From a virus (taxonomy: Duplodnaviria > Heunggongvirae > Uroviricota > Caudoviricetes): a DNA stretch of 64,000 bases. Under the pieces are notes generated by a model. The model was not told the DNA's origin. It worked only from the letters and a program-made list of their open reading frames with translations, and searched no databases. Made by a program: the position numbers and the translations under genes. Of this stretch, positions 33,041-58,239 are shown piece by piece. Location: IMG/VR virus record IMGVR_UViG_2850808358_000005. One strand, given 5' to 3'. Position 1 is the first letter of the stretch. Each line of letters opens with the position of its first letter.

Positions 33041-33235
33041 TTAGTCTTCTTTAATACAGAAGTGGCTTACAGAATCTGCGTGCGATTCTTTGCTGATTAG
33101 AATTGCATCAGGAGGTAATGGCGTTACGATAAACTCCCCATTTTCGAGCGTTATCACTTCGTAGTGACCTGGTAAAGAAAGCACAACAATCAATTCTTTA
33201 ACGTTCATAACAAAAAGCCTGTGAACTTTTAACAC
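33041..33235 (-). CDS. Hypothetical small phage protein
   Basis: 64-aa ORF. Confidence 0.3.
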   Translation of the reverse strand: MLKVHRLFVMNVKELIVVLSLPGHYEVITLENGEFIVTPLPPDAILISKESHADSVSHFCIKED

Positions 33236-33334
33236 TTCCCCTTAAGGGGTCCATCCCTCTTCTCCCTGCGCGCTACTTAAGTGTTTTTGATTCTATTCCT
33301 GCGCATTCTGAAAGTTCAAACGCGTTGAAAATCG

Positions 33335-33360
33335 CAACAAAAAACCCGCCGAAGCGGGTT
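33335..33360 (-). terminator. Rho-independent terminator downstream of hok
   Basis: acccgc-cgaa-gcgggt hairpin followed by a T-run on the minus strand. Confidence 0.6.
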
Positions 33361-33430
33361 AAGTGCGGGTGCGTTGAGGATGCCTGACACATCAGAGGTG
33401 GCGAGGGATTTCTCCCTCGCCTGGTCACTC

Positions 33431-33586
33431 TTACTTCCTGGATTCGTAGTCTACGAAGACAGCGACCTCCGTCTGGCCGGTTCGGATTCGTACCTCACAG
33501 AGGTCTTTCCTCGTTACCAGTGCCGTCACTATGACGGTTAAACAGATGACGATCAGGGCGATTAACATCGCCTTTTGCTGCTTCAT
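33431..33586 (-). CDS. hok: Hok/Gef-family type I toxin
   Basis: MKQQKAMLIALIVICLTVIVTALVTRKDLCEVRIRTGQTEVAVF... matches the Hok/Gef family; overlapping upstream frame (mok-like). Confidence 0.85.
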   Translation of the reverse strand: MKQQKAMLIALIVICLTVIVTALVTRKDLCEVRIRTGQTEVAVFVDYESRK

Positions 33587-33813
33587 AGCCTGCTTCTCCT
33601 TGCCTTTCGGCATGTAAGAGGCTAACCTACATGTGCAAAGCATGAAATTGGCCTCAGATTAATGTTAAGCGTCTTGCCGGACGCGTAATGTTAACTGGGG
33701 CTTTTCTCTATCTGCCTTTTGGTGTTCATGCCTGAAGCAGATAGCCTCAAGCACCCGCAGTCATTCTACTTACCTCGCCAATATGAAATCAATCAGAAAG
33801 GTGCCCCATAAAA

Positions 33814-34500
33814 TCACTCCTTCTCTTCTTTACCGTAGTGGAGTTGACCAATTTTGATAAGAGGGCGTCCCTGAGATTTGCGGTGTAGATTGGTATCGCG
33901 CAGAGAATACACACAGCCACAATATTCCTGCTGATAGAATTTTTCGCGCTTGCTGATTTCAATCATACGGGACGAGCCGCCCTGCTTGCGCCAGTTATAA
34001 TCCCAGTACACCATGCCCGGATAATGCGCGACGGCTCGCCGCCCACAGTCGTTAACCTGCTGCATATTTTTCCAGCGTGAAATGCCCAGTGAACTGCTGA
34101 TCACACTGAAACCATTTTCAGCGGCGTACAGCGCTGTCCGCTCAAAACGCATGTCAAAACACATGGTGCAACGGATCCCTCGTTCGGGCTCCCATTCCAT
34201 TCCTTTGGCTCGTTCAAACCAGTTGTCTGTGTCGTAATCAGCATCAATAAACGGCACGCCGTGTTGTTCAGCAAAGCGAATATTCTCATCCTTACGAATT
34301 AAATACTCTTTCTGAGGATGAATGTTCGGGTTGTAGAAAAAGATGGTGTAGTCGATTCCCGAGGCCTGAAGCGCCTCCATCACCTCACCGGAACATGGAG
34401 CACAGCAAGAGTGCAGTAGTAGTTTGTTTGCCCCGTTTGGGAGCTCCAATTTGGGCCGTTTGAAATCAGCAACTGTCATAAATATGTTTATTGGGGTCAT
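33814..34500 (-). CDS. DUF208 / QueH-like protein (epoxyqueuosine reductase family)
   Basis: 228 aa with [11 protein letters not shown] motif near the N-terminus and further conserved Cys (CTMCF, CGC). Confidence 0.6.
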
Positions 34501-37897: not shown

Positions 37898-38287
37898 ATG
37901 GACATGAGAAAAAAGCAATACGACACCCCGCTGGCAGAAAGGTTAGATACGATCTCGCAACAGCATCACTTAAGCGGTTCAGATTTAGCGCGTATCGCTG
38001 GTGTAGGTCGCTCATCAGTTAACGCATGGAAAAAAAGAGGAACAATCAGTAAAGATTCCGCGGCAAAAATTGCAGAAGCTACAAACGTATCCCTTTCCTG
38101 GTTGCTGACAGGAAAAGAAGATAGCAATAGAGAGACACTTGATGATGATGAGAAAGCCCTGCTTGATGTTTACAGAAATCTGCCACCTGTAGAACGCAGA
38201 AATATGCTTGCAGCTTTTCAAATGCGACTTCAAAAACTGACTGAATTTTATTCAGAATACGTTGACCCAGCAACGCGTCAAAAATAA
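37898..38287 (+). CDS. Prophage repressor (XRE-family HTH, CI/RacR-like)
   Basis: 129 aa, N-terminal HTH (SGSDLARIAGVGRSSVNAWKK), divergent from cro-like; TGTTCAC direct repeats in the intergenic operator region. Confidence 0.7.
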   Translation: MDMRKKQYDTPLAERLDTISQQHHLSGSDLARIAGVGRSSVNAWKKRGTISKDSAAKIAEATNVSLSWLLTGKEDSNRETLDDDEKALLDVYRNLPPVERRNMLAAFQMRLQKLTEFYSEYVDPATRQK

Positions 38288-40950: not shown

Positions 40951-41220
40951 GCTTTCTGATATCCGGGATATTGACAAAGCAACCTGCATTGTTGCAAGAT
41001 GATCGCACTAGAAACAGTTAAGCGGTCATCCGCACCCGATAGCCTTGCGGCTTTTTTATGCCTGAAATACGGCACATCCGTACAAAGATCGGGTGGAGAG
41101 GCGTAATACAATACCCGTAAGGGGAATATGCCCGGAGCTTCTTAACTGGCTCTAGTTGACACCCGATCACCAGCTACTAACTGGTAATCGCAGACTAAAA
41201 CAGTTAAGGAGGCCACTAAA

Positions 41221-45019: not shown

Positions 45020-46284
45020 TGAGGTGTACTGGCAATAGCGGACACTACCATTTGTTCTTTTTTTAAGCAGCCATCTGATGATATTTTTCCCTGAAGGCTG
45101 CCGGGGAGATATTCCCCAGACGAGAGTGACGACGCTGACGATTGTAGAAAATCTCAATGTATTCCCGTATTACTGAGATGGCTTCATCCCGGTTATTAAA
45201 ACGATAGTGGCTCAGGCTCTCATTTTTCAGCGTTCCCCAGAAGCTTTCCATCGGAGCGTTGTCGTAACAGTTACCTTTACGCGACATTGATGTTTTCAGA
45301 CCAAACTGCTCCTGTATGACCCGGTAATCGTATGCGCAGTACTGTGAACCTCGATCAGAGTGGTGGATTAGCCCGGCAGGTGGGCGCTGGCTCCTGAGCG
45401 CCATAAACAGGGCTTTACCTGTCAGCTCTTTTGTCATGCGCTCTCCCATGGCGTAGCCGACAATTTCGCACGTATAAACATCTTTGATGCCAGCGAGGTA
45501 CAACCATCCCTCCTGTGTGGCAACATACGTCAGGTCCGCCACCCAGACCTGATTTGGTGCTGTAGGAGCGAACGTCTGGTTCAGCAGATTTGGCGCAACT
45601 GGCAGATTGTGGTTCGGGTTCGTAGTCGCTCTGAACTTGCGTTTCTGCTTACAGCGTAGCCTTAGCTCCTTACGAAGACGTGCCAGTCGGTCACGACCAA
45701 CGATGATGCCATTCTCTGCCAGCTCCGTCTGGAGCCGCCGGGTTCCATATGTTTCGCGAGTGCGGATATGTGCCACCTTAATCTCCAGTTTTAGCCGCTC
45801 ATCACTTTGTTTTCTGTCTGAGGGTTCATGCTGTACCCAGTTGTAATAACCGCTCCTGGATACACCAAATACCTGACACATAGCTTCAATGGGAAATTGT
45901 TGTCGCCATTGTTCGATTAACGCGTATTTTTCAGCGACTCCTGTGCAAAATACGCTGTTGCTTTTTTTTAATATATCTCGCTCAAGGCGAGCTTCATTTA
46001 ACGCCTTACGCAGTTGCAGAATTTCAGATTCCAGTTCAGCCACCGTGCGGGAACCAGGAGTACCGAGCCCTTTTCTGGCGGCGGTAACCCATTGTCCTAA
46101 AGTGCCTTCAGGAAGGGATAATCGGGAAGCGCCTTCACTGATCGAAAGTTGATTTTCAAGAACCGTTCTGACAGCTTCGGCTTTGAACTCTTTAGAGTAA
46201 CGTTGGGTTTTTCTGCTCATTATTAGCTCCTTCTGATGCCATTCTATTTCAGGAAGGAGTGTCCGTTAAACTCAGGCTACCTCA
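45020..46284 (-). mobile_element. IS600 copy 3, 1265 bp, TSD GCT
   Basis: Ends as other copies; GCT at 45017..45019 and 46285..46287; one extra A in the slippery run. Confidence 0.9.
45063..46220 (-). CDS. IS600 fused OrfAB transposase (in-frame fusion)
   Basis: 385-aa continuous ORF; A8 (45962..45969) versus A7 in the other four copies. Confidence 0.8.
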   Translation of the reverse strand: MSRKTQRYSKEFKAEAVRTVLENQLSISEGASRLSLPEGTLGQWVTAARKGLGTPGSRTVAELESEILQLRKALNEARLERDILKKSNSVFCTGVAEKYALIEQWRQQFPIEAMCQVFGVSRSGYYNWVQHEPSDRKQSDERLKLEIKVAHIRTRETYGTRRLQTELAENGIIVGRDRLARLRKELRLRCKQKRKFRATTNPNHNLPVAPNLLNQTFAPTAPNQVWVADLTYVATQEGWLYLAGIKDVYTCEIVGYAMGERMTKELTGKALFMALRSQRPPAGLIHHSDRGSQYCAYDYRVIQEQFGLKTSMSRKGNCYDNAPMESFWGTLKNESLSHYRFNNRDEAISVIREYIEIFYNRQRRHSRLGNISPAAFREKYHQMAA

Positions 46285-47020
46285 GCTCAAACAGGAGTGG
46301 CGACGCTTTACCGATCGATTTGTTAACAGTCAGGCGCACATTATTATGTGCGGGCGTGCAGGATATGAGTATGACTTTTTCGAAGGTGATGATGGCAAAC
46401 GCCAGTTGGCAAAAACCGGTATAAAAATGAAAGCAGAAACAGAAACCGGTTATGAACCCTCCATCCTGATCCAGATGGAGAAGCAAATGAACATAGAAAC
46501 CGGTCAGGTGTGGCGCACCGCCAGAATACTAAAAGATCGCTCCACCCGTATTGATGGACAGGTATTTTCAAACCCAACATTTAAAAACTTTCTTCCTCAT
46601 ATCGAGTTTCTTAACCTGGGAGGTGAACACCTCGGCATCGATACCTCACGGGATAACAGTGAATTATTTGCCAACGACGGTACACCGACATGGCTAAAAG
46701 AAAAGCGTGCAAAAGAAATCGCACTTGATGAAATTATCGAGTTGCTCAACAAGCACCATGGGGGCACCAGTAACGACGCCAAACGCGCAAAAGCTGATTT
46801 GCTGGAAAAAACATTCACCTCCCGCTCATGGGAAAGAATCAAAGGTATGGACTGGCCGACAATCAAAGCTGGTCGTAATGCACTATGGATTGAACTGGAA
46901 GGCGTTGAATATGCATTCCCGGATCCACAAACACAAAACGAAACGCAACAAGCAGGATACGATGAGAATATTCCGGTGTAAAACCAAGTGCATTTTTGGA
47001 AAATATTAATGGAGGTGTTC

Positions 47021-47185
47021 ATGTATAAAATTACAGCCACTATTGAAAAGGAAGGTGGTTCTCCTGCCAGCTGGACAAGATACTCAAAGACAAAACTAAC
47101 GAAATCAGAATGCGAAAAAAATGCTCTCAGGGGAAAAAGAAGCAGGCGCTTCCAGAGAGCAGAAAGTAAAACTGATAAATTTTAA
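47021..47185 (+). CDS. Hypothetical small protein
   Basis: GGAGG RBS before MYKITATIEKEGG... Confidence 0.3.
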   Translation: MYKITATIEKEGGSPASWTRYSKTKLTKSECEKNALRGKRSRRFQRAESKTDKF

Positions 47186-47316
47186 TTGCGAGAAACTTCA
47201 GTCCTCGTGAATTTCATTATATCCAGATTAGAACTTCATAGCTGATTATTAAAAATCAACCACACCCGCCAGTATTCTGTATATTTACTGGCGGTCATAT
47301 CGTGAGAGGTATGGCA

Positions 47317-48687: not shown

Positions 48688-48788
48688 AAAAAGACCGGAA
48701 TACAGAAATTCGAGTAAATTTCGGGGAATTTCGGGGGAGACATTTGCAACTAATTGATTTCAAATGCAATTAAAAAAAGACCGAATAC
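48688..48788. repeat. Candidate att core repeats AAAAAGACCG(G)AATAC
   Basis: Motif at 48688..48703 and 48774..48788; degenerate copy at 793..807 at the start of the first ipaH repeat. Confidence 0.35.
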
Positions 48789-49242
48789 GATTCCTGTTTT
48801 CGTCAACAAACAATAAAACCCTTTAAAATTAATGCGTTGAATAAATTTACGTTCATCTTTTAATCCCTGGCACGTACCATTGCATATTAATACATTCAAC
48901 CAGTTACCATTTTTTTCGAGTTTTTTAGAGAAATTTTCGGGAATATTTCAGGTCAATCCATGCAGACGCAAGCAATTCCTGTATTGAATAATTCCGTAGC
49001 AATTATGTAAAATCATCTCCGGCTGATTTTCATTCAAACTCGCGCTATCGAACATCCATCAGCCAGCCGTGGCACGTTCTTGCATACGACGTGCTACGGT
49101 TTCCTTTACGATTTGGGGTTGCGACTTTACCTCTATTGATAATGCATTCCGGCAGAACGTTCAAATATGAAGTACGATGTTTAACTAACCGAAAAACAAG
49201 AACAATACGGTGCAAGCAAGCTATTCACAGTTAACTGAAACA

Positions 49243-49259
49243 GTATCGTTTTTTTACAG
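49243..49259 (+). promoter_or_regulatory. MxiE box, second copy
   Basis: GTATCGTTTTTTTACAG identical to the first copy. Confidence 0.8.
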
Positions 49260-49378
49260 CCAATTTTGTTTGTCCTTTTATAATAAAAAAGTTATGAAGT
49301 TCATTTCATGGAATGAACTTCATAAAAACTCCTACTTATTTCTTTTAACAAAGCCATTTGTCCATCGGCTTTAACTGA

Positions 49379-51094
49379 ATGTCCATCATGTTACCGATAA
49401 ATAATAACTTTTCATTGTCCCAAAATTCTTTTTATAACACTATTTCCGGTACATATGCTGATTACTTTTCAGCATGGGATAAATGGGAAAAACAAGCGCT
49501 CCCCGGTGAAAATCGGAATGAAGCGGTCTCCCTACTTAAAGAATGTCTCATCAATCAGTTCAGTGAGCTTCAACTGAATCGTTTAAATCTGTCCTCGCTA
49601 CCTGACAACTTACCACCTCAAATCACTGTTCTGGAAATTACTCAGAATGCCCTAATATCATTACCAGAATTGCCAGCATCGCTGGAATACCTTGACGCCT
49701 GTGACAATCACCTGTCAACACTTCCTGAATTACCCGCATCTCTGAAACATCTTGATGTAGATAACAACCAACTAACCATGCTTCCTGAATTGCCTGCATT
49801 GCTGGAATATATTAATGCAGATAACAATCAGCTAACCATGCTTCCTGAATTACCTACATCGCTGGAAGTGCTCTCAGTAAGAAATAACCAGCTGACATTT
49901 CTCCCTGAGTTACCTGAATCACTGGAAGCGCTCGATGTAAGTACTAATCTTCTGGAAAGCCTACCAGCCGTACCTGTAAGAAATCATCACTCAGAGGAAA
50001 CCGAGATATTTTTCCGGTGCCGCGAGAATCGCATCACACACATTCCGGAAAATATACTTAGCCTTGATCCGACCTGCACTATCATCCTCGAAGACAATCC
50101 TCTGTCCTCACGGATCAGGGAGTCTCTGTCGCAACAAACCGCCCAACCGGACTACCACGGCCCACGGATTTACTTCTCCATGAGTGACGGACAACAGAAT
50201 ACACTCCATCGCCCCCTGGCTGATGCCGTGACAGCATGGTTCCCGGAAAACAAACAATCTGATGTATCACAGATATGGCATGCTTTTGAACATGAAGAGC
50301 ACGCCAACACCTTTTCCGCGTTCCTTGACCGCCTTTCCGATACCGTCTCTGCACGCAATACCTCCGGATTCCGTGAACAGGTCGCTGCATGGCTGGAAAA
50401 ACTCAGTGCCTCTGCGGAGCTTCGACAGCAGTCTTTCGCTGTTGCTGCTGATGCCACTGAGAGCTGTGAGGACCGTGTCGCGCTCACATGGAACAATCTC
50501 CGGAAAACCCTCCTGGTCCATCAGGCATCTGAAGGCCTTTTCGATAATGATACCGGCGCTCTGCTCTCCCTGGGCAGGGAAATGTTCCGCCTCGAAATTC
50601 TGGAGGACATTGCCCGGGATAAAGTCAGAACTCTCCATTTTGTGGATGAGATAGAAGTCTACCTGGCCTTCCAGACCATGCTCGCAGAGAAACTTCAGCT
50701 CTCCACTGCCGTGAAGGAAATGCGTTTCTATGGCGTGTCGGGAGTGACAGCAAATGACCTCCGCACTGCCGAAGCCATGGTCAGAAGCCGTGAAGAGAAT
50801 GAATTTACGGACTGGTTCTCCCTCTGGGGACCATGGCATGCTGTACTGAAGCGTACGGAAGCTGACCGCTGGGCGCTGGCAGAAGAGCAGAAATATGAGA
50901 TGCTGGAGAATGAGTACCCTCAGAGGGTGGCTGACCGGCTGAAAGCATCAGGTCTGAGCGGTGATGCGGATGCGGAGAGGGAAGCCGGTGCACAGGTGAT
51001 GCGTGAGACTGAACAGCAGATTTACCGTCAGCTGACTGACGAGGTACTGGCCCTGCGATTGCCTGAAAACGGCTCACAACTGCACCATTCATAA
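49379..51094 (+). CDS. ipaH: IpaH-family type III effector, second identical copy
   Basis: 571-aa product identical to 1400..3115. Confidence 0.95.
   Translation: MSIMLPINNNFSLSQNSFYNTISGTYADYFSAWDKWEKQALPGENRNEAVSLLKECLINQFSELQLNRLNLSSLPDNLPPQITVLEITQNALISLPELPASLEYLDACDNHLSTLPELPASLKHLDVDNNQLTMLPELPALLEYINADNNQLTMLPELPTSLEVLSVRNNQLTFLPELPESLEALDVSTNLLESLPAVPVRNHHSEETEIFFRCRENRITHIPENILSLDPTCTIILEDNPLSSRIRESLSQQTAQPDYHGPRIYFSMSDGQQNTLHRPLADAVTAWFPENKQSDVSQIWHAFEHEEHANTFSAFLDRLSDTVSARNTSGFREQVAAWLEKLSASAELRQQSFAVAADATESCEDRVALTWNNLRKTLLVHQASEGLFDNDTGALLSLGREMFRLEILEDIARDKVRTLHFVDEIEVYLAFQTMLAEKLQLSTAVKEMRFYGVSGVTANDLRTAEAMVRSREENEFTDWFSLWGPWHAVLKRTEADRWALAEEQKYEMLENEYPQRVADRLKASGLSGDADAEREAGAQVMRETEQQIYRQLTDEVLALRLPENGSQLHHS
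49600..49969 (+). repeat. LRR-encoding tandem DNA repeats in the second ipaH
   Basis: Same as first copy. Confidence 0.7.
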
Positions 51095-51602
51095 TCACAT
51101 CGCATAAACCACAGACCGGACTGACTCCGGAAAAACAGAGGCCCGCCCCCGGGCCTCCCCGGATTCATCCGTTTCCCTGTTCAGCCTGACAGCACGCCCC
51201 GGCGGCCGGATGACAGACTCCGCTTCGGTAAGCAAAGCGGTCTTCTGTGATTCCGCCAGTTGCGGCTTATTCATTACTCAACGTCAAACGCCCGAATTGA
51301 AGCCAAATCATCCAGACTGCTCAGCTCCTCTTTCATCTCCCGCTGACGGCGATAAATCTCATCGTTGCGATCGACCTGCGCCTGCACCATTGCTGCCGCC
51401 AGTTCTTCCAGTTCCGGCATCGACAGTTTCACCTGCTGATTATCGGCATCGCTCCACGCCATATGCGTTTGTGCTGTGACAGATTTTGCCAGCATGACTA
51501 CCGGGGACAGGCGGCCCAGTGAGTCGGGGCCAGCATTCTGAGGTAGCCTGAGTTTAACGGACACTCCTTCCTGAAATAGAATGGCATCAGAAGGAGCTAA
51601 TA

Positions 51603-51905
51603 ATGAGCAGAAAAACCCAACGTTACTCTAAAGAGTTCAAAGCCGAAGCTGTCAGAACGGTTCCTGAAAATCAACTTTCGATCAGTGAAGGCGCTTCCCG
51701 ATTATCCCTTCCTGAAGGCACTTTAGGACAATGGGTTACCGCCGCCAGAAAAGGGCTCGGTACTCCTGGTTCCCGCACGGTGGCTGAACTGGAATCTGAA
51801 ATTCTGCAACTGCGTAAGGCGTTAAATGAAGCTCGCCTTGAGCGAGATATATTAAAAAAAGCAACAGCGTATTTTGCACAGGAGTCGCTGAAAAATACGC
51901 GTTAA
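51603..51905 (+). CDS. IS600 OrfA
   Basis: 100 aa (one substitution RTVPENQ). Confidence 0.9.
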   Translation: MSRKTQRYSKEFKAEAVRTVPENQLSISEGASRLSLPEGTLGQWVTAARKGLGTPGSRTVAELESEILQLRKALNEARLERDILKKATAYFAQESLKNTR

Positions 51906-51940
51906 TCGAACAATGGCGACAACAATTTCCCATTGAAGCG

Positions 51941-52759
51941 ATGTGTCAGGTATTTGGTGTATCCAGGAGCGGTTATTACAACCGGGTACAGCATGAACCC
52001 TCAGACAGAAAACAAAGTGATGAGCGGCTAAAACTGGAGATTAAGGTGGCACATATCCGCACTCGCGAAACATATGGAACCCGGCGGCTCCAGACGGAGC
52101 TGGCAGAGAATGGCATCATCGTTGGTCGTGACCGACTGGCACGTCTTCGTAAGGAGCTAAGGCTACGCTGTAAGCAGAAACGCAAGTTCAGAGCGACTAC
52201 GAACCCGAACCACAATCTGCCAGTTGCGCCAAATCTGCTGAACCAGACGTTCGCTCCTACAGCACCAAATCAGGTCTGGGTGGCGGACCTGACGTATGTT
52301 GCCACACAGGAGGGATGGTTGTACCTCGCTGGCATCAAAGATGTTTATACGTGCGAAATTGTCGGCTACGCCATGGGAGAGCGCATGACAAAAGAGCTGA
52401 CAGGTAAAGCCCTGTTTATGGCGCTCAGGAGCCAGCGCCCACCTGCCGGGCTAATCCACCACTCTGATCGAGGTTCACAGTACTGCGCATACGATTACCG
52501 GGTCATACAGGAGCAGTTTGGTCTGAAAACATCAATGTCGCGTAAAGGTAACTGTTACGACAACGCTCCGATGGAAAGCTTCTGGGGAACGCTGAAAAAT
52601 GAGAGCCTGAGCCACTATCGTTTTAATAACCGGGATGAAGCCATCTCAGTAATACGGGAATACATTGAGATTTTCTACAATCGTCAGCGTCGTCACTCTC
52701 GTCTGGGGAATATCTCCCCGGCAGCCTTCAGGGAAAAATATCATCAGATGGCTGCTTAA
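51941..52759 (+). CDS. IS600 OrfB transposase
   Basis: 272 aa. Confidence 0.9.
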   Translation: MCQVFGVSRSGYYNRVQHEPSDRKQSDERLKLEIKVAHIRTRETYGTRRLQTELAENGIIVGRDRLARLRKELRLRCKQKRKFRATTNPNHNLPVAPNLLNQTFAPTAPNQVWVADLTYVATQEGWLYLAGIKDVYTCEIVGYAMGERMTKELTGKALFMALRSQRPPAGLIHHSDRGSQYCAYDYRVIQEQFGLKTSMSRKGNCYDNAPMESFWGTLKNESLSHYRFNNRDEAISVIREYIEIFYNRQRRHSRLGNISPAAFREKYHQMAA

Positions 52760-53114
52760 AAAAAGAACAAATGGTAGTGTCCGCTATTGCCAGTACACCT
52801 CATTCCAGACACGACCGTTCCATTCAAACGTGAACGGCTTCGCCTCCTGTTCTGTGCGCCATGCTTCAATTTCCTGACGTCTGGCCTCTCTGGCCGCTTC
52901 CAGCATTTCTGGTGTCACAGTGAATGGGGCTATCTCACCCCATTTGCCACTTTGCAGTTCCTGCCAGATTTGCTGACCCGTCGGTGCGACATCATCAGCG
53001 GTGGCTGTGTAGGGGACTGCCTGGTCTCTGTCGTCAAAAAAAACGTCACAGTCTACTGCGCCACTTTCGGTATAACGGGGATTAATGATTTTTTTAATTT
53101 CCACGGTGCATTCC

Positions 53115-54113: not shown

Positions 54114-54156
54114 TGAGGTGTACTGGCAATAGCGGACACTACCATTTGTTCTTTTT

Positions 54157-54975
54157 TTAAGCAGCCATCTGATGATATTTTTCCCTGAAGGCTGCCGGGG
54201 AGATATTCCCCAGACGAGAGTGACGACGCTGACGATTGTAGAAAATCTCAATGTATTCCCGTATTACTGAGATGGCTTCATCCCGGTTATTAAAACGATA
54301 GTGGCTCAGGCTCTCATTTTTCAGCGTTCCCCAGAAGCTTTCCATCGGAGCGTTGTCGTAACAGTTACCTTTACGCGACATTGATGTTTTCAGACCAAAC
54401 TGCTCCTGTATGACCCGGTAATCGTATGCGCAGTACTGTGAACCTCGATCAGAGTGGTGGATTAGCCCGGCAGGTGGGCGCTGGCTCCTGAGCGCCATAA
54501 ACAGGGCTTTACCTGTCAGCTCTTTTGTCATGCGCTCTCCCATGGCGTAGCCGACAATTTCGCACGTATAAACATCTTTGATGCCAGCGAGGTACAACCA
54601 TCCCTCCTGTGTGGCAACATACGTCAGGTCCGCCACCCAGACCTGATTTGGTGCTGTAGGAGCGAACGTCTGGTTCAGCAGATTTGGCGCAACTGGCAGA
54701 TTGTGGTTCGGGTTCGTAGTCGCTCTGAACTTGCGTTTCTGCTTACAGCGTAGCCTTAGCTCCTTACGAAGACGTGCCAGTCGGTCACGACCAACGATGA
54801 TGCCATTCTCTGCCAGCTCCGTCTGGAGCCGCCGGGTTCCATATGTTTCGCGAGTGCGGATATGTGCCACCTTAATCTCCTGTTTTAGCCGCTCATCACT
54901 TTGTTTTCTGTCTGAGGGTTCATGCTGTACCCGGTTGTAATAACCGCTCCTGGATACACCAAATACCTGACACAT
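54157..54975 (-). CDS. IS600 OrfB transposase
   Basis: 272 aa (ERLKQEIKV variant). Confidence 0.9.
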   Translation of the reverse strand: MCQVFGVSRSGYYNRVQHEPSDRKQSDERLKQEIKVAHIRTRETYGTRRLQTELAENGIIVGRDRLARLRKELRLRCKQKRKFRATTNPNHNLPVAPNLLNQTFAPTAPNQVWVADLTYVATQEGWLYLAGIKDVYTCEIVGYAMGERMTKELTGKALFMALRSQRPPAGLIHHSDRGSQYCAYDYRVIQEQFGLKTSMSRKGNCYDNAPMESFWGTLKNESLSHYRFNNRDEAISVIREYIEIFYNRQRRHSRLGNISPAAFREKYHQMAA

Positions 54976-55010
54976 CGCTTCAATGGGAAATTGTTGTCGC
55001 CATTGTTCGA

Positions 55011-55313
55011 TTAACGCGTATTTTTCAGCGACTCCTGTGCAAAATACGCTGTTGCTTTTTTTAATATATCTCGCTCAAGGCGAGCTTCATTTAACGCCTT
55101 ACGCAGTTGCAGAATTTCAGATTCCAGTTCAGCCACCGTGCGGGAACCAGGAGTACCGAGCCCTTTTCTGGCGGCGGTAACCCATTGTCCTAAAGTGCCT
55201 TCAGGAAGGGATAATCGGGAAGCGCCTTCACTGATCGAAAGTTGATTTTCAAGAACCGTTCTGACAGCTTCGGCTTTGAACTCTTTAGAGTAACGTTGGG
55301 TTTTTCTGCTCAT
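55011..55313 (-). CDS. IS600 OrfA
   Basis: 100 aa. Confidence 0.9.
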   Translation of the reverse strand: MSRKTQRYSKEFKAEAVRTVLENQLSISEGASRLSLPEGTLGQWVTAARKGLGTPGSRTVAELESEILQLRKALNEARLERDILKKATAYFAQESLKNTR

Positions 55314-55377
55314 TATTAGCTCCTTCTGATGCCATTCTATTTCAGGAAGGAGTGTCCGTTAAACTCAGGCTACCTCA

Positions 55378-57174: not shown

Positions 57175-58239
57175 TCACGAAAGCTGCATTGTCACATTGA
57201 TGTTAAAAATGATTTCGACAAATCCGCGCATCGGCGTATAGGAGGCCGAAAGGCCTGCATAACGCCCGATACCGTAATCATTGGGATTAGTGTTGATATA
57301 CTGGCGGAAAGGCACTGCATCGACGACAGGCTGACCGTTGACCAGGCCGTAAGATACGCCCGTATTGAACACCGCCTGTGCGACCTGCTGTAGACGGTCG
57401 ATCCCGTCCTGGTTGTAGTAAAGCGGGTTAATTGAGTTATTGCTGCCGTTGATCACCGTGTTGGCGAGCTGCATATCGACATTAATCTGCACCCAGTCCA
57501 CGGAATACCAGTACGTCATATCGTTACCGTCACTGGTAACGCCTTTCACCAGAATCGTGTTGGAAATTCCCCCTCAGCCCCCGTGTCGACGTAGTTAATA
57601 TTCTGCTTCGTCATCGTGACCAGAATTGAATTTTTGCCCGTGTGGGCGTTTACCGCCTGTAGATAGCGAAATGCCATCGGCGGCACCTTGTTGATTTCTG
57701 AAGGTGATGCGGAAACATAGTTCCACATTACGGCTGCTGCCGCGTTTGTCGCCGGGTACGTATCATCCGCCGTTGCAATAACCGACTTAATACCGGCATA
57801 AGGCGAAACGTAATTCGTGTCGTCCGGCGTTTTCGTCAGCACGAAGAAATACTGCATCGCTTCGTTGGCGGTGTGGAGTTTTGCCAGACTGATAAACTCT
57901 GCGTCACCATCCCACGGCTGCGGCACCAGATACGCATAAAAACGCAGGAGCGGATCTTCCATATAAGCTTTCAGTGCAGCGATTTCCTTACTGACTCCAC
58001 CTTTCTGTACTCCCAGCTCCAGCAGGTAAATCCCAACTGAATTTCCCTGGGCAAAAAAACGTGTTTACTGCCGTCACCAGATTTTCACTGCCAACAATGG
58101 AAAACTGCCCCAGTGTCACTGGCGAACCGGAAAGCTGAGAATCAGCAATCGTCCAGGTCAGTGTTTTTTCATCCGTGACGGTAGCAGTATATTCGCCATT
58201 CCACGCGTCGGGCGAACACCCGGAAACAACAATTTTCAC
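57175..58239 (-). pseudogene. Tail sheath gene, fragmented by frameshifts/stop
   Basis: Three consecutive ORF fragments (57988..58239, 57546..57962, 57175..57549) in different frames. Confidence 0.5.

Follow-up and report, generated by a model that had tools for sequence, protein, structure and literature searches.

The paradigm for this class of locus is hok/sok (parB) of plasmid R1, in which the hok mRNA is processed exonucleolytically at its 3' end, the antisense RNA Sok has a short half-life, and the duplex of the two RNAs is cleaved by RNase III (PMC9841398). The closest experimentally tested relative of the locus described here is hokW-sokW of Sakai prophage 5 of E. coli O157 (Sp5; Stx2 phage VT2-Sakai, NC_000902 57501..57713; Takada et al. 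2021, PMC8621323), an experimentally established pair of a toxin and an RNA antitoxin with its own promoter. HokW of Sp5 is toxic when expressed and is neutralised by sokW; mutation of the sokW -10 abolishes the antitoxin activity and lets the toxicity show, and growth is restored when sokW is provided in trans. The dependence on RNase III and Hfq is partial. After RecA-dependent induction sokW vanishes and HokW appears, and phage release is halved in the absence of the locus (PMC8621323). Of 45 diverse Hok homologues that were assayed, 42 were toxic (bioRxiv 10.1101/2025.08.07.668861), and hok was found to be enriched in prophages in a recent survey.

On the minus strand of the window (the whole stretch of viral DNA that was analysed, 64,000 nucleotides), positions 33336-33792 very probably hold an intact type I toxin-antitoxin module, hok/mok/sok, which belongs to the prophage hokW/hokD subgroup and works by the canonical R1-type mechanism (probability roughly 0.9). 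The kind of element is already known. Each of the RNA control elements of the R1 paradigm has a counterpart here: promoter, 5' tac box, anti-SD box, mok SD and start, dcb, 3' fbi box and terminator. The open reading frame, its PF01848 match, the terminator, the promoter and the RF01794 match together place the reality of a Hok/Gef locus far beyond chance. The original prediction of a Hok/Gef-type type I toxin locus within a prophage is thus supported, with refinements that concern the mok frame, the coordinates of Sok and the strand of the Rfam match.

Hok toxin and the mok frame

The coding features all lie on the minus strand:

33431..33586, minus strand: hok coding sequence, 51 aa (PF01848 HOK_GEF; SD AGGAG at 33600-33596)
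33641..33655, minus strand: mok SD GAGG (33655-33652) and mok AUG (33643-33641), read from the sequence and aligned with R1-type GAGGC...ATG
33431..33643, minus strand: mok frame, 70 aa, in-frame with hok (open reading frame list)
33445..33448, minus strand: Tyr47 codon UAC followed by G, a candidate TadA A-to-I site (Tyr to Cys), from conservation and homologous position

The 51-aa toxin of the Hok family that had been predicted is present as the frame running from ATG 33586 to 33431 (-), with the sequence MKQQKAMLIALIVICLTVIVTALVTRKDLCEVRIRTGQTEVAVFVDYESRK. It matches PF01848 HOK_GEF with an E-value of 4.3e-23 and 81 bits (cut-off 22), covering the whole 42-position profile, and scores 55 bits with the NCBIfam 'Hok family toxin' subfamily model, under that model's cut-off of 73. 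The protein is 100% identical to RefSeq WP_014532198.1 (HokD).

Upstream, GAGG is followed after 8 nt by ATG 33643, which opens a 70-aa frame that continues through hok. This start aligns with the R1-type and Sp5 mok starts, and counterparts occur in phage records under the labels MokW or mok. The overlapping upstream reading frame seen earlier is therefore there (ATG 33643, 70 aa), but it is an in-frame N-terminal extension of hok and not a second frame. In 35 of 48 unique relatives mok is likewise in-frame and 70 aa long; its frame relative to hok varies among relatives.

The hexamer TACGAA at Tyr47 is invariant (27/27 homologues). The homologous Cys in HokC, HokD and HokE has been described as 'RNA-editing-coded', arising from TadA A-to-I editing of the mRNA (PMC12214031), and by analogy Tyr47 is probably recoded here at some level (Y47C).

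The predicted mok-hok mRNA

The features of the transcript and its promoter are as follows, in 5' to 3' order:

33763..33792, minus strand: hok (mok-hok) promoter, -35 TTGATT at 33792-33787, 18-nt spacer, -10 TAGAAT at 33768-33763 (promoter scan, 9/12 matches)
33336..33756, minus strand: predicted full-length mok-hok mRNA, ~421 nt (first RF01794 position to terminator T-run)
33745..33756, minus strand: tac box, 5' GGGUGCUUGAGG (partner 33379-33367 in the MFE fold; almost unchanged across 27 homologues)
33697..33702, minus strand: ucb or anti-SD box AGCCCC (A55 G56 C57 C58 C59 invariant; partner of the mok SD in the closed form)
33614..33622, minus strand: dcb-like box GCCUCUUAC, complement of the mok SD, overlapping the sok promoter spacer (invariant TAGCCTCTTAC block)
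33400..33421, minus strand: 3' UTR hairpin (MFE fold; consensus helix at columns 363-370/382-394 with compensatory pairs)
33367..33379, minus strand: fbi box CCUCAACGCACCC, the tac complement (duplexfold and covariation)
33336..33360, minus strand: hok intrinsic terminator (terminator scan: 7-bp stem, 5 GC pairs, T-run)

The -10 of the promoter and the GGGTGC start that follows it are kept in phage Rac and in Sp5. As had been proposed, the locus has its own terminator, which lies at 33360..33343 (-) followed by a T-run and is the sole terminator found in 33200-33900. The length of the predicted mRNA matches the ~355-397 nt inferred for homologues. The 421-nt transcript has an MFE of -179.4 kcal/mol (z -8.7 against shuffles) and closes 5' to 3'; the tac/fbi duplex is worth -22.6 kcal/mol by duplexfold, against -14.6 +/- 2.3 for shuffled 5' ends. 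When homologues from Escherichia, Kluyvera, Photorhabdus, Pantoea, Erwinia and Kalamiella were compared, the best partner of the 5' end fell 45-56 nt past the stop codon in all but two of the distinct-sequence homologues tested. The two exceptions are the R1-type plasmid and one hokC-type copy, in which the optimal duplex differs.

Whole transcripts of 27 homologues, from more than six genera, were aligned and folded with RNAalifold with no structural guidance. Unaided, the program recovered a 5'/3' closing helix, the 5' hairpin, an SD-sequestering hairpin, a helix between dcb and the stop codon, and a helix burying the hok start region, with compensatory change at 21 of 71 pairs. The closing helix and three other helices are backed by compensatory changes among the 27 homologues; pair 4:429 of the closing helix, for example, is U-A in 15, C-G in 8 and U-G in 3. 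The mok SD is held against the anti-SD box in a conserved hairpin that also shows compensatory pairs. The dcb-like box carries GCCUC, and in the full-length consensus fold CCUCUUAC pairs with GUAAGAG at the hok stop codon. These predicted helices correspond to tac/fbi, ucb (anti-SD) and dcb of the R1 model, from which the definition of dcb is also taken, and the R1 counterpart of the 3' UTR hairpin is the 3'-terminal stem of the processed mRNA (PMC9841398).

The consequences of losing the 3' end were modelled. Forcing the tac/ucb stem of the 'open' form to pair cost 13.2 kcal/mol in the full-length RNA versus 2.2 kcal/mol after removal of the 3' end, and the unpaired probability of the mok AUG rose from 0.08 to 0.29-0.57 upon 3' truncation. 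Folded without constraints, the 3'-truncated RNA has an MFE structure with a local 5' hairpin in place of the open tac/ucb form. This hairpin resembles the 'metastable' structure of R1; the order of these states is beyond what thermodynamic folding alone can give. The shift in energy on truncation is as predicted by the model of processing-triggered refolding and serves as a thermodynamic plausibility check on that model, with the refolding itself still a prediction.

Two sub-threshold Rfam matches fall on the 3' UTR. isrK, an sRNA of the Salmonella Gifsy-1 prophage, matches at 33339-33420 (-) with 31 bits (gathering 50), taking in the 3' UTR hairpin and the terminator, and rsmX matches with 25 bits, also below its gathering cut-off. 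Both look like a generic two-hairpin similarity; the isrK match may alternatively reflect distant homology.

The candidate Sok antisense RNA and its predicted promoter

Two features were placed on the opposite strand:

33600..33628, plus strand: sok promoter, -35 TTGCCT at 33600-33605, 17-nt spacer, -10 TAACCT at 33623-33628 (positional homology to R1-type TTGCGC-17-TATCCT)
33635..33709, plus strand: candidate Sok RNA, ~70-75 nt, with approximate, inferred ends (fold and alignment with R1-type)

The sok promoter was not called by a generic promoter scan because its -10, TAACCT, fits the consensus at only three of six positions; both hexamers are identical in Sp5 sokW. The candidate RNA is laid out as a single-stranded tail of ~15 nt (33635-33649), a hairpin (33650-33702) and a U-rich 3' end that runs to ~33709. 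The segment 33630-33715 (+) folds with -32.7 kcal/mol (z -5.5), and the 75-nt candidate, folded by itself, likewise gives tail, hairpin and U-run. As in R1, the tail is exactly complementary to the region around the mok start codon. At the level of sequence, then, the putative Sok has what is expected of a cis-antisense Sok: its own promoter, a tail that covers the mok start, and a hairpin of the terminator type. The original prediction had placed such an RNA on the plus strand around 33590..33800. The strand holds, and the interval is narrowed to the promoter at 33600-33628 and a candidate RNA at ~33635-33709, but 33710-33800 is occupied by the hok 5' leader and the hok promoter.

Variability of the Sok recognition tail

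Among 48 unique phage-borne relatives, no other 20-nt stretch of the transcript varies as much as the segment from the mok SD to the sok -10 (33651-33630), which holds the Sok tail and the mok start. Its variability is 0.92 bit, versus 0.17 at four-fold sites of hok and 0.54 in an unpaired loop. The segment occurs as discrete alleles, and it differed in every pair of copies from the same genome in the 11 genomes examined. The notion that cis-antisense pairs are specific is already accepted for type I systems. A tentative reading, which we consider possible but somewhat doubtful, is that this ~20-nt segment is under diversifying selection and that prophage hok/sok loci carry mutually non-cross-reacting 'specificity alleles', the allele in the window being distinct from that of Sp5 sokW; relaxed constraint, or recombination between alleles, would be another source of the same variability. 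If specificity alleles exist, each prophage of a poly-lysogen would keep private control of its toxin. In any case, related copies are seen to differ in the recognition segment, a point that is relevant to cross-talk in strains with multiple copies.

Prophage context

Reading along the minus strand, the locus is preceded by a repressor gene (37898-38287, itself on the plus strand), a cII-like gene, an O-like initiator, a DnaC-like loader, DUF977, a zinc-ribbon open reading frame and QueH, and is followed by a 64-aa phage open reading frame, DUF1367, DUF1364, the Q antiterminator, four tRNA genes, endolysin and Rz. hok/sok thus sits at the nin-region position of a lambdoid (Rac-like) prophage. 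Its placement between nin-like genes, as first described, is right as to position, but the neighbours are not lambda nin genes proper. hok is co-oriented with the early-right operon, and the terminator scan found no terminator between QueH and hok.

Several other features of the window were recorded. The prophage QueH (epoxyqueuosine reductase; 33814-34500 (-), PF02677, E 2e-65) lies directly upstream of hok, and the four phage tRNA genes (Gly-TCC, Thr-TGT, Arg-TCT and Met-CAT) lie at 31040-31350, so that one prophage carries both tRNA-modification and tRNA cargo. Just past the hok terminator is a promoter-like TTGAAC-18-TAGAAT at 33290-33319 (-). The 64-aa open reading frame, 33041-33235 (-), belongs to phrog_34610, a phage family of unknown function, and occupies the place that 'rem' has in phage Rac. 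A full-length match of 198 bits at 47027-47206 (-), about 13 kb away from hok/sok, identifies RalA, the sRNA that acts as antitoxin in the type I system RalR/RalA of the Rac prophage, and hence a second type I antitoxin in the window. The sRNA-Xcc1 family matches at 41087-41176 (+) with 67 bits (gathering 53). IS-like repeats are frequent in the 64-kb window: a repeat of 2.77 kb, whose copies are 99.9% identical, is found at 792-3558 and 48771-51538 and carries two identical CssrB matches, and an element of ~1264 bp, presumably an insertion sequence, is present in five copies (4150-5413, 8606-9869, 45020-46288, 51539-52802 and 54114-55377). The density of these repeats, together with the matches to CssrB and CssrC, points to Shigella.

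Proposed mechanism and biological role

The scheme proposed for this locus is that of R1. A sigma-70 promoter would drive a mok-hok mRNA of ~420 nt, the 5' tac of which would pair with the 3' fbi. In this closed form the upstream anti-SD box would hold the mok ribosome-binding site, so that the RNA would be neither translated nor bound by Sok. Slow trimming from the 3' end would remove fbi, upon which tac would capture the anti-SD box and the mok start would be exposed. Where Sok is present, its single-stranded tail would pair over the mok start codon and the duplex would be destroyed (by RNase III in R1); where Sok has been lost through decay (it is unstable in R1), mok would be translated and hok with it by coupling. 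The 51-aa Hok would then insert into the inner membrane and the cell would be killed or lysed. The sequence and structure elements on which this scheme draws, and their conservation, are those set out above; 3' processing, Sok instability, RNase III cleavage and toxicity would apply here by analogy with R1 and Sp5.

The role of the module is probably linked to the prophage: either addiction, by killing cells that lose the element, or, as in Sp5, production of Hok upon induction to speed lysis and phage release. As regards addiction, chromosomal hokA, hokB and hokC are mentioned, as work cited in bioRxiv 10.1101/2025.08.07.668861, as having mediated no post-segregational killing. As regards induction, one may speculate that read-through from the induced early operon enters hok in the sense direction and runs head-on into the convergent sok promoter, which could suppress sok; if true, this would be a simple coupling of Hok release to induction.

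An anti-phage role has been considered in place of these, in which a functional module would serve mainly in abortive infection or superinfection exclusion and not in addiction or lysis timing. Defence cargo is frequent in prophages, and R1 hok/sok on a high-copy plasmid is cited in PMC8621323 as having lowered T4 plating; yet the closest tested relative, that of Sp5, promoted phage release instead of blocking phage (PMC8621323), and we regard defence as an unlikely main role. Decay is more improbable still. The locus would then be a non-functional hok remnant, like K-12 hokA, hokC, hokD and hokE, which are disrupted by IS elements or rearrangement, and would be kept by hitch-hiking with the prophage. 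The K-12 chromosomal hok loci have been reported as inactivated (PMC12214031; bioRxiv 10.1101/2025.08.07.668861), the window abounds in the IS-like repeats described above, and one related copy in another genome (L046) is frame-disrupted. However, no IS element, frameshift or deletion was found inside 33336-33792, every element from promoter to terminator, like both sok hexamers, is in place and in the same order as in the functional Sp5 locus, and the pairing of all helices is kept in the window copy. An intact module with a prophage-linked role is the preferred reading.

Strand of the RF01794 match

A covariance-model search for hok/sok, proposed earlier as a check, does give a strong match, but on the hok-sense strand and not on the antisense strand. 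RF01794, which Rfam names 'sok antitoxin (CssrC)', matches at 33756..33581 (-) over its full model length with 117 bits (gathering 59) and an E-value of 5.5e-26. Its first position is 7 nt past the hok -10 and its last positions are the hok SD and AUG. CssrC, the namesake of RF01794, was seen as an RNA of ~340 nt on Northern blots of S. flexneri and is co-oriented with its neighbours (PMC3071730). Such a length suits a hok mRNA and not Sok; RF01794 therefore marks the hok-sense leader, and the antitoxin has to be sought on the opposite strand within that leader. That the locus is instead an sRNA gene (CssrC) on the minus strand next to a small open reading frame, with no plus-strand antitoxin, is hardly credible, for although the match does lie on the minus strand and CssrC was described as an sRNA with the same orientation as its neighbours, the model begins where hok transcription starts and extends to the hok SD and AUG, the ~340 nt fit hok mRNA and not Sok, the antitoxin of the near-identical Sp5 sequence is made from a separate promoter within this region and toxicity appears when this antitoxin is lost, and the plus strand has conserved promoter hexamers and a terminator-type hairpin.

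The main use of the analysis of this hok/mok/sok module is correct annotation, with little beyond. The antitoxin RNA and the mRNA control elements, which annotation pipelines leave unmarked, are now given coordinates, and users of RF01794 are warned that its matches mark the hok-sense leader, with Sok on the opposite strand.

Comparison with known systems

Of 5426 complete E. coli genomes, 4715 contain DNA homologous to the locus, the median being two copies per genome; it also occurs in 102 phage records, where it is labelled MokW, hok/mok or gef. No match to the locus of at least 99% was found in complete E. coli genomes, phage records or viral contigs, the best being ~97-98% at the DNA level. 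PGAP annotates such copies as 'hokD' in prophages of E. coli and Shigella; the one in NZ_CP065615 has an identical Hok and ~97% identical DNA (97.3% by blastn, 97.9% by megablast). From such 97% relatives the window copy differs in its terminator and in the hairpin after the stop codon, which is shorter here. Gene order is shared with E. coli FDAARGOS_943 (WP_014532198.1), which has QueH, hok, the small open reading frame, DUF1367, DUF1364 and DUF1133, and with Escherichia phage Rac (MN652886), where the locus is annotated hok/mok and is followed by the small open reading frame, DUF1367 (irsA), DUF1364 (ybcO) and Q. K-12 hokD of the Qin prophage is described as being without canonical components owing to rearrangement (PMC12214031), whereas the window copy is complete.

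With hokW-sokW of Sp5 the locus shares Hok at 50 of 51 aa and 92.7% DNA identity over 423 nt, the same in-frame 70-aa mok, identical sok hexamers, tac and fbi, and the same extended Sok hairpin. The Sok tail and mok start differ as alleles (CCAATTTCATGCTTTGCAC against CTCAATCCATGCTGAACAC), as do residue 50 (R against E) and the terminator. The position differs too: the Sp5 locus is near the right prophage end among ea/ant-like genes, whereas that of the window is between QueH and DUF1367, upstream of Q. hokW was absent from VT2-Sakai 1-26000, where a nin-region position would be expected, and was found at 57501-57713. At the right prophage end Sp5 hokW is on the minus strand (L006 31502-31714), and once the prophage has excised and circularised it would be located beyond att, on the downstream side of the leftward early operon. 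Transcription reading through into hokW in the sense direction might thus be confined to the excised form of Sp5, which could bear on its unexplained RecA-dependent activation.

For R1, the reference was a plasmid locus found by protein search, the Hok of which is 100% identical to the R1 Hok sequence used as the query. A distant DNA search of the plasmid collection gave only short segments against R1-type (IncF) loci and no full-length alignments, and R1 Hok is only 44% identical to that of the window. The mok start, in-frame here, is out of frame with hok in the R1-type locus (+1 in this alignment). R1 Sok is ~64 nt long; the candidate Sok of the window, ~73 nt, has an apical extension of ~17-19 nt in its hairpin relative to R1. 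The loop of the 5' hairpin is shorter than in R1, and the tac/fbi helix has one additional pair and a U-A where R1 has C-G. The two loci nevertheless share one architecture, with promoter, tac, ucb, mok SD, dcb, hok, fbi and terminator in the same order, the sok promoter at the same position with the same spacing, and the Sok tail lying over the mok AUG in both.
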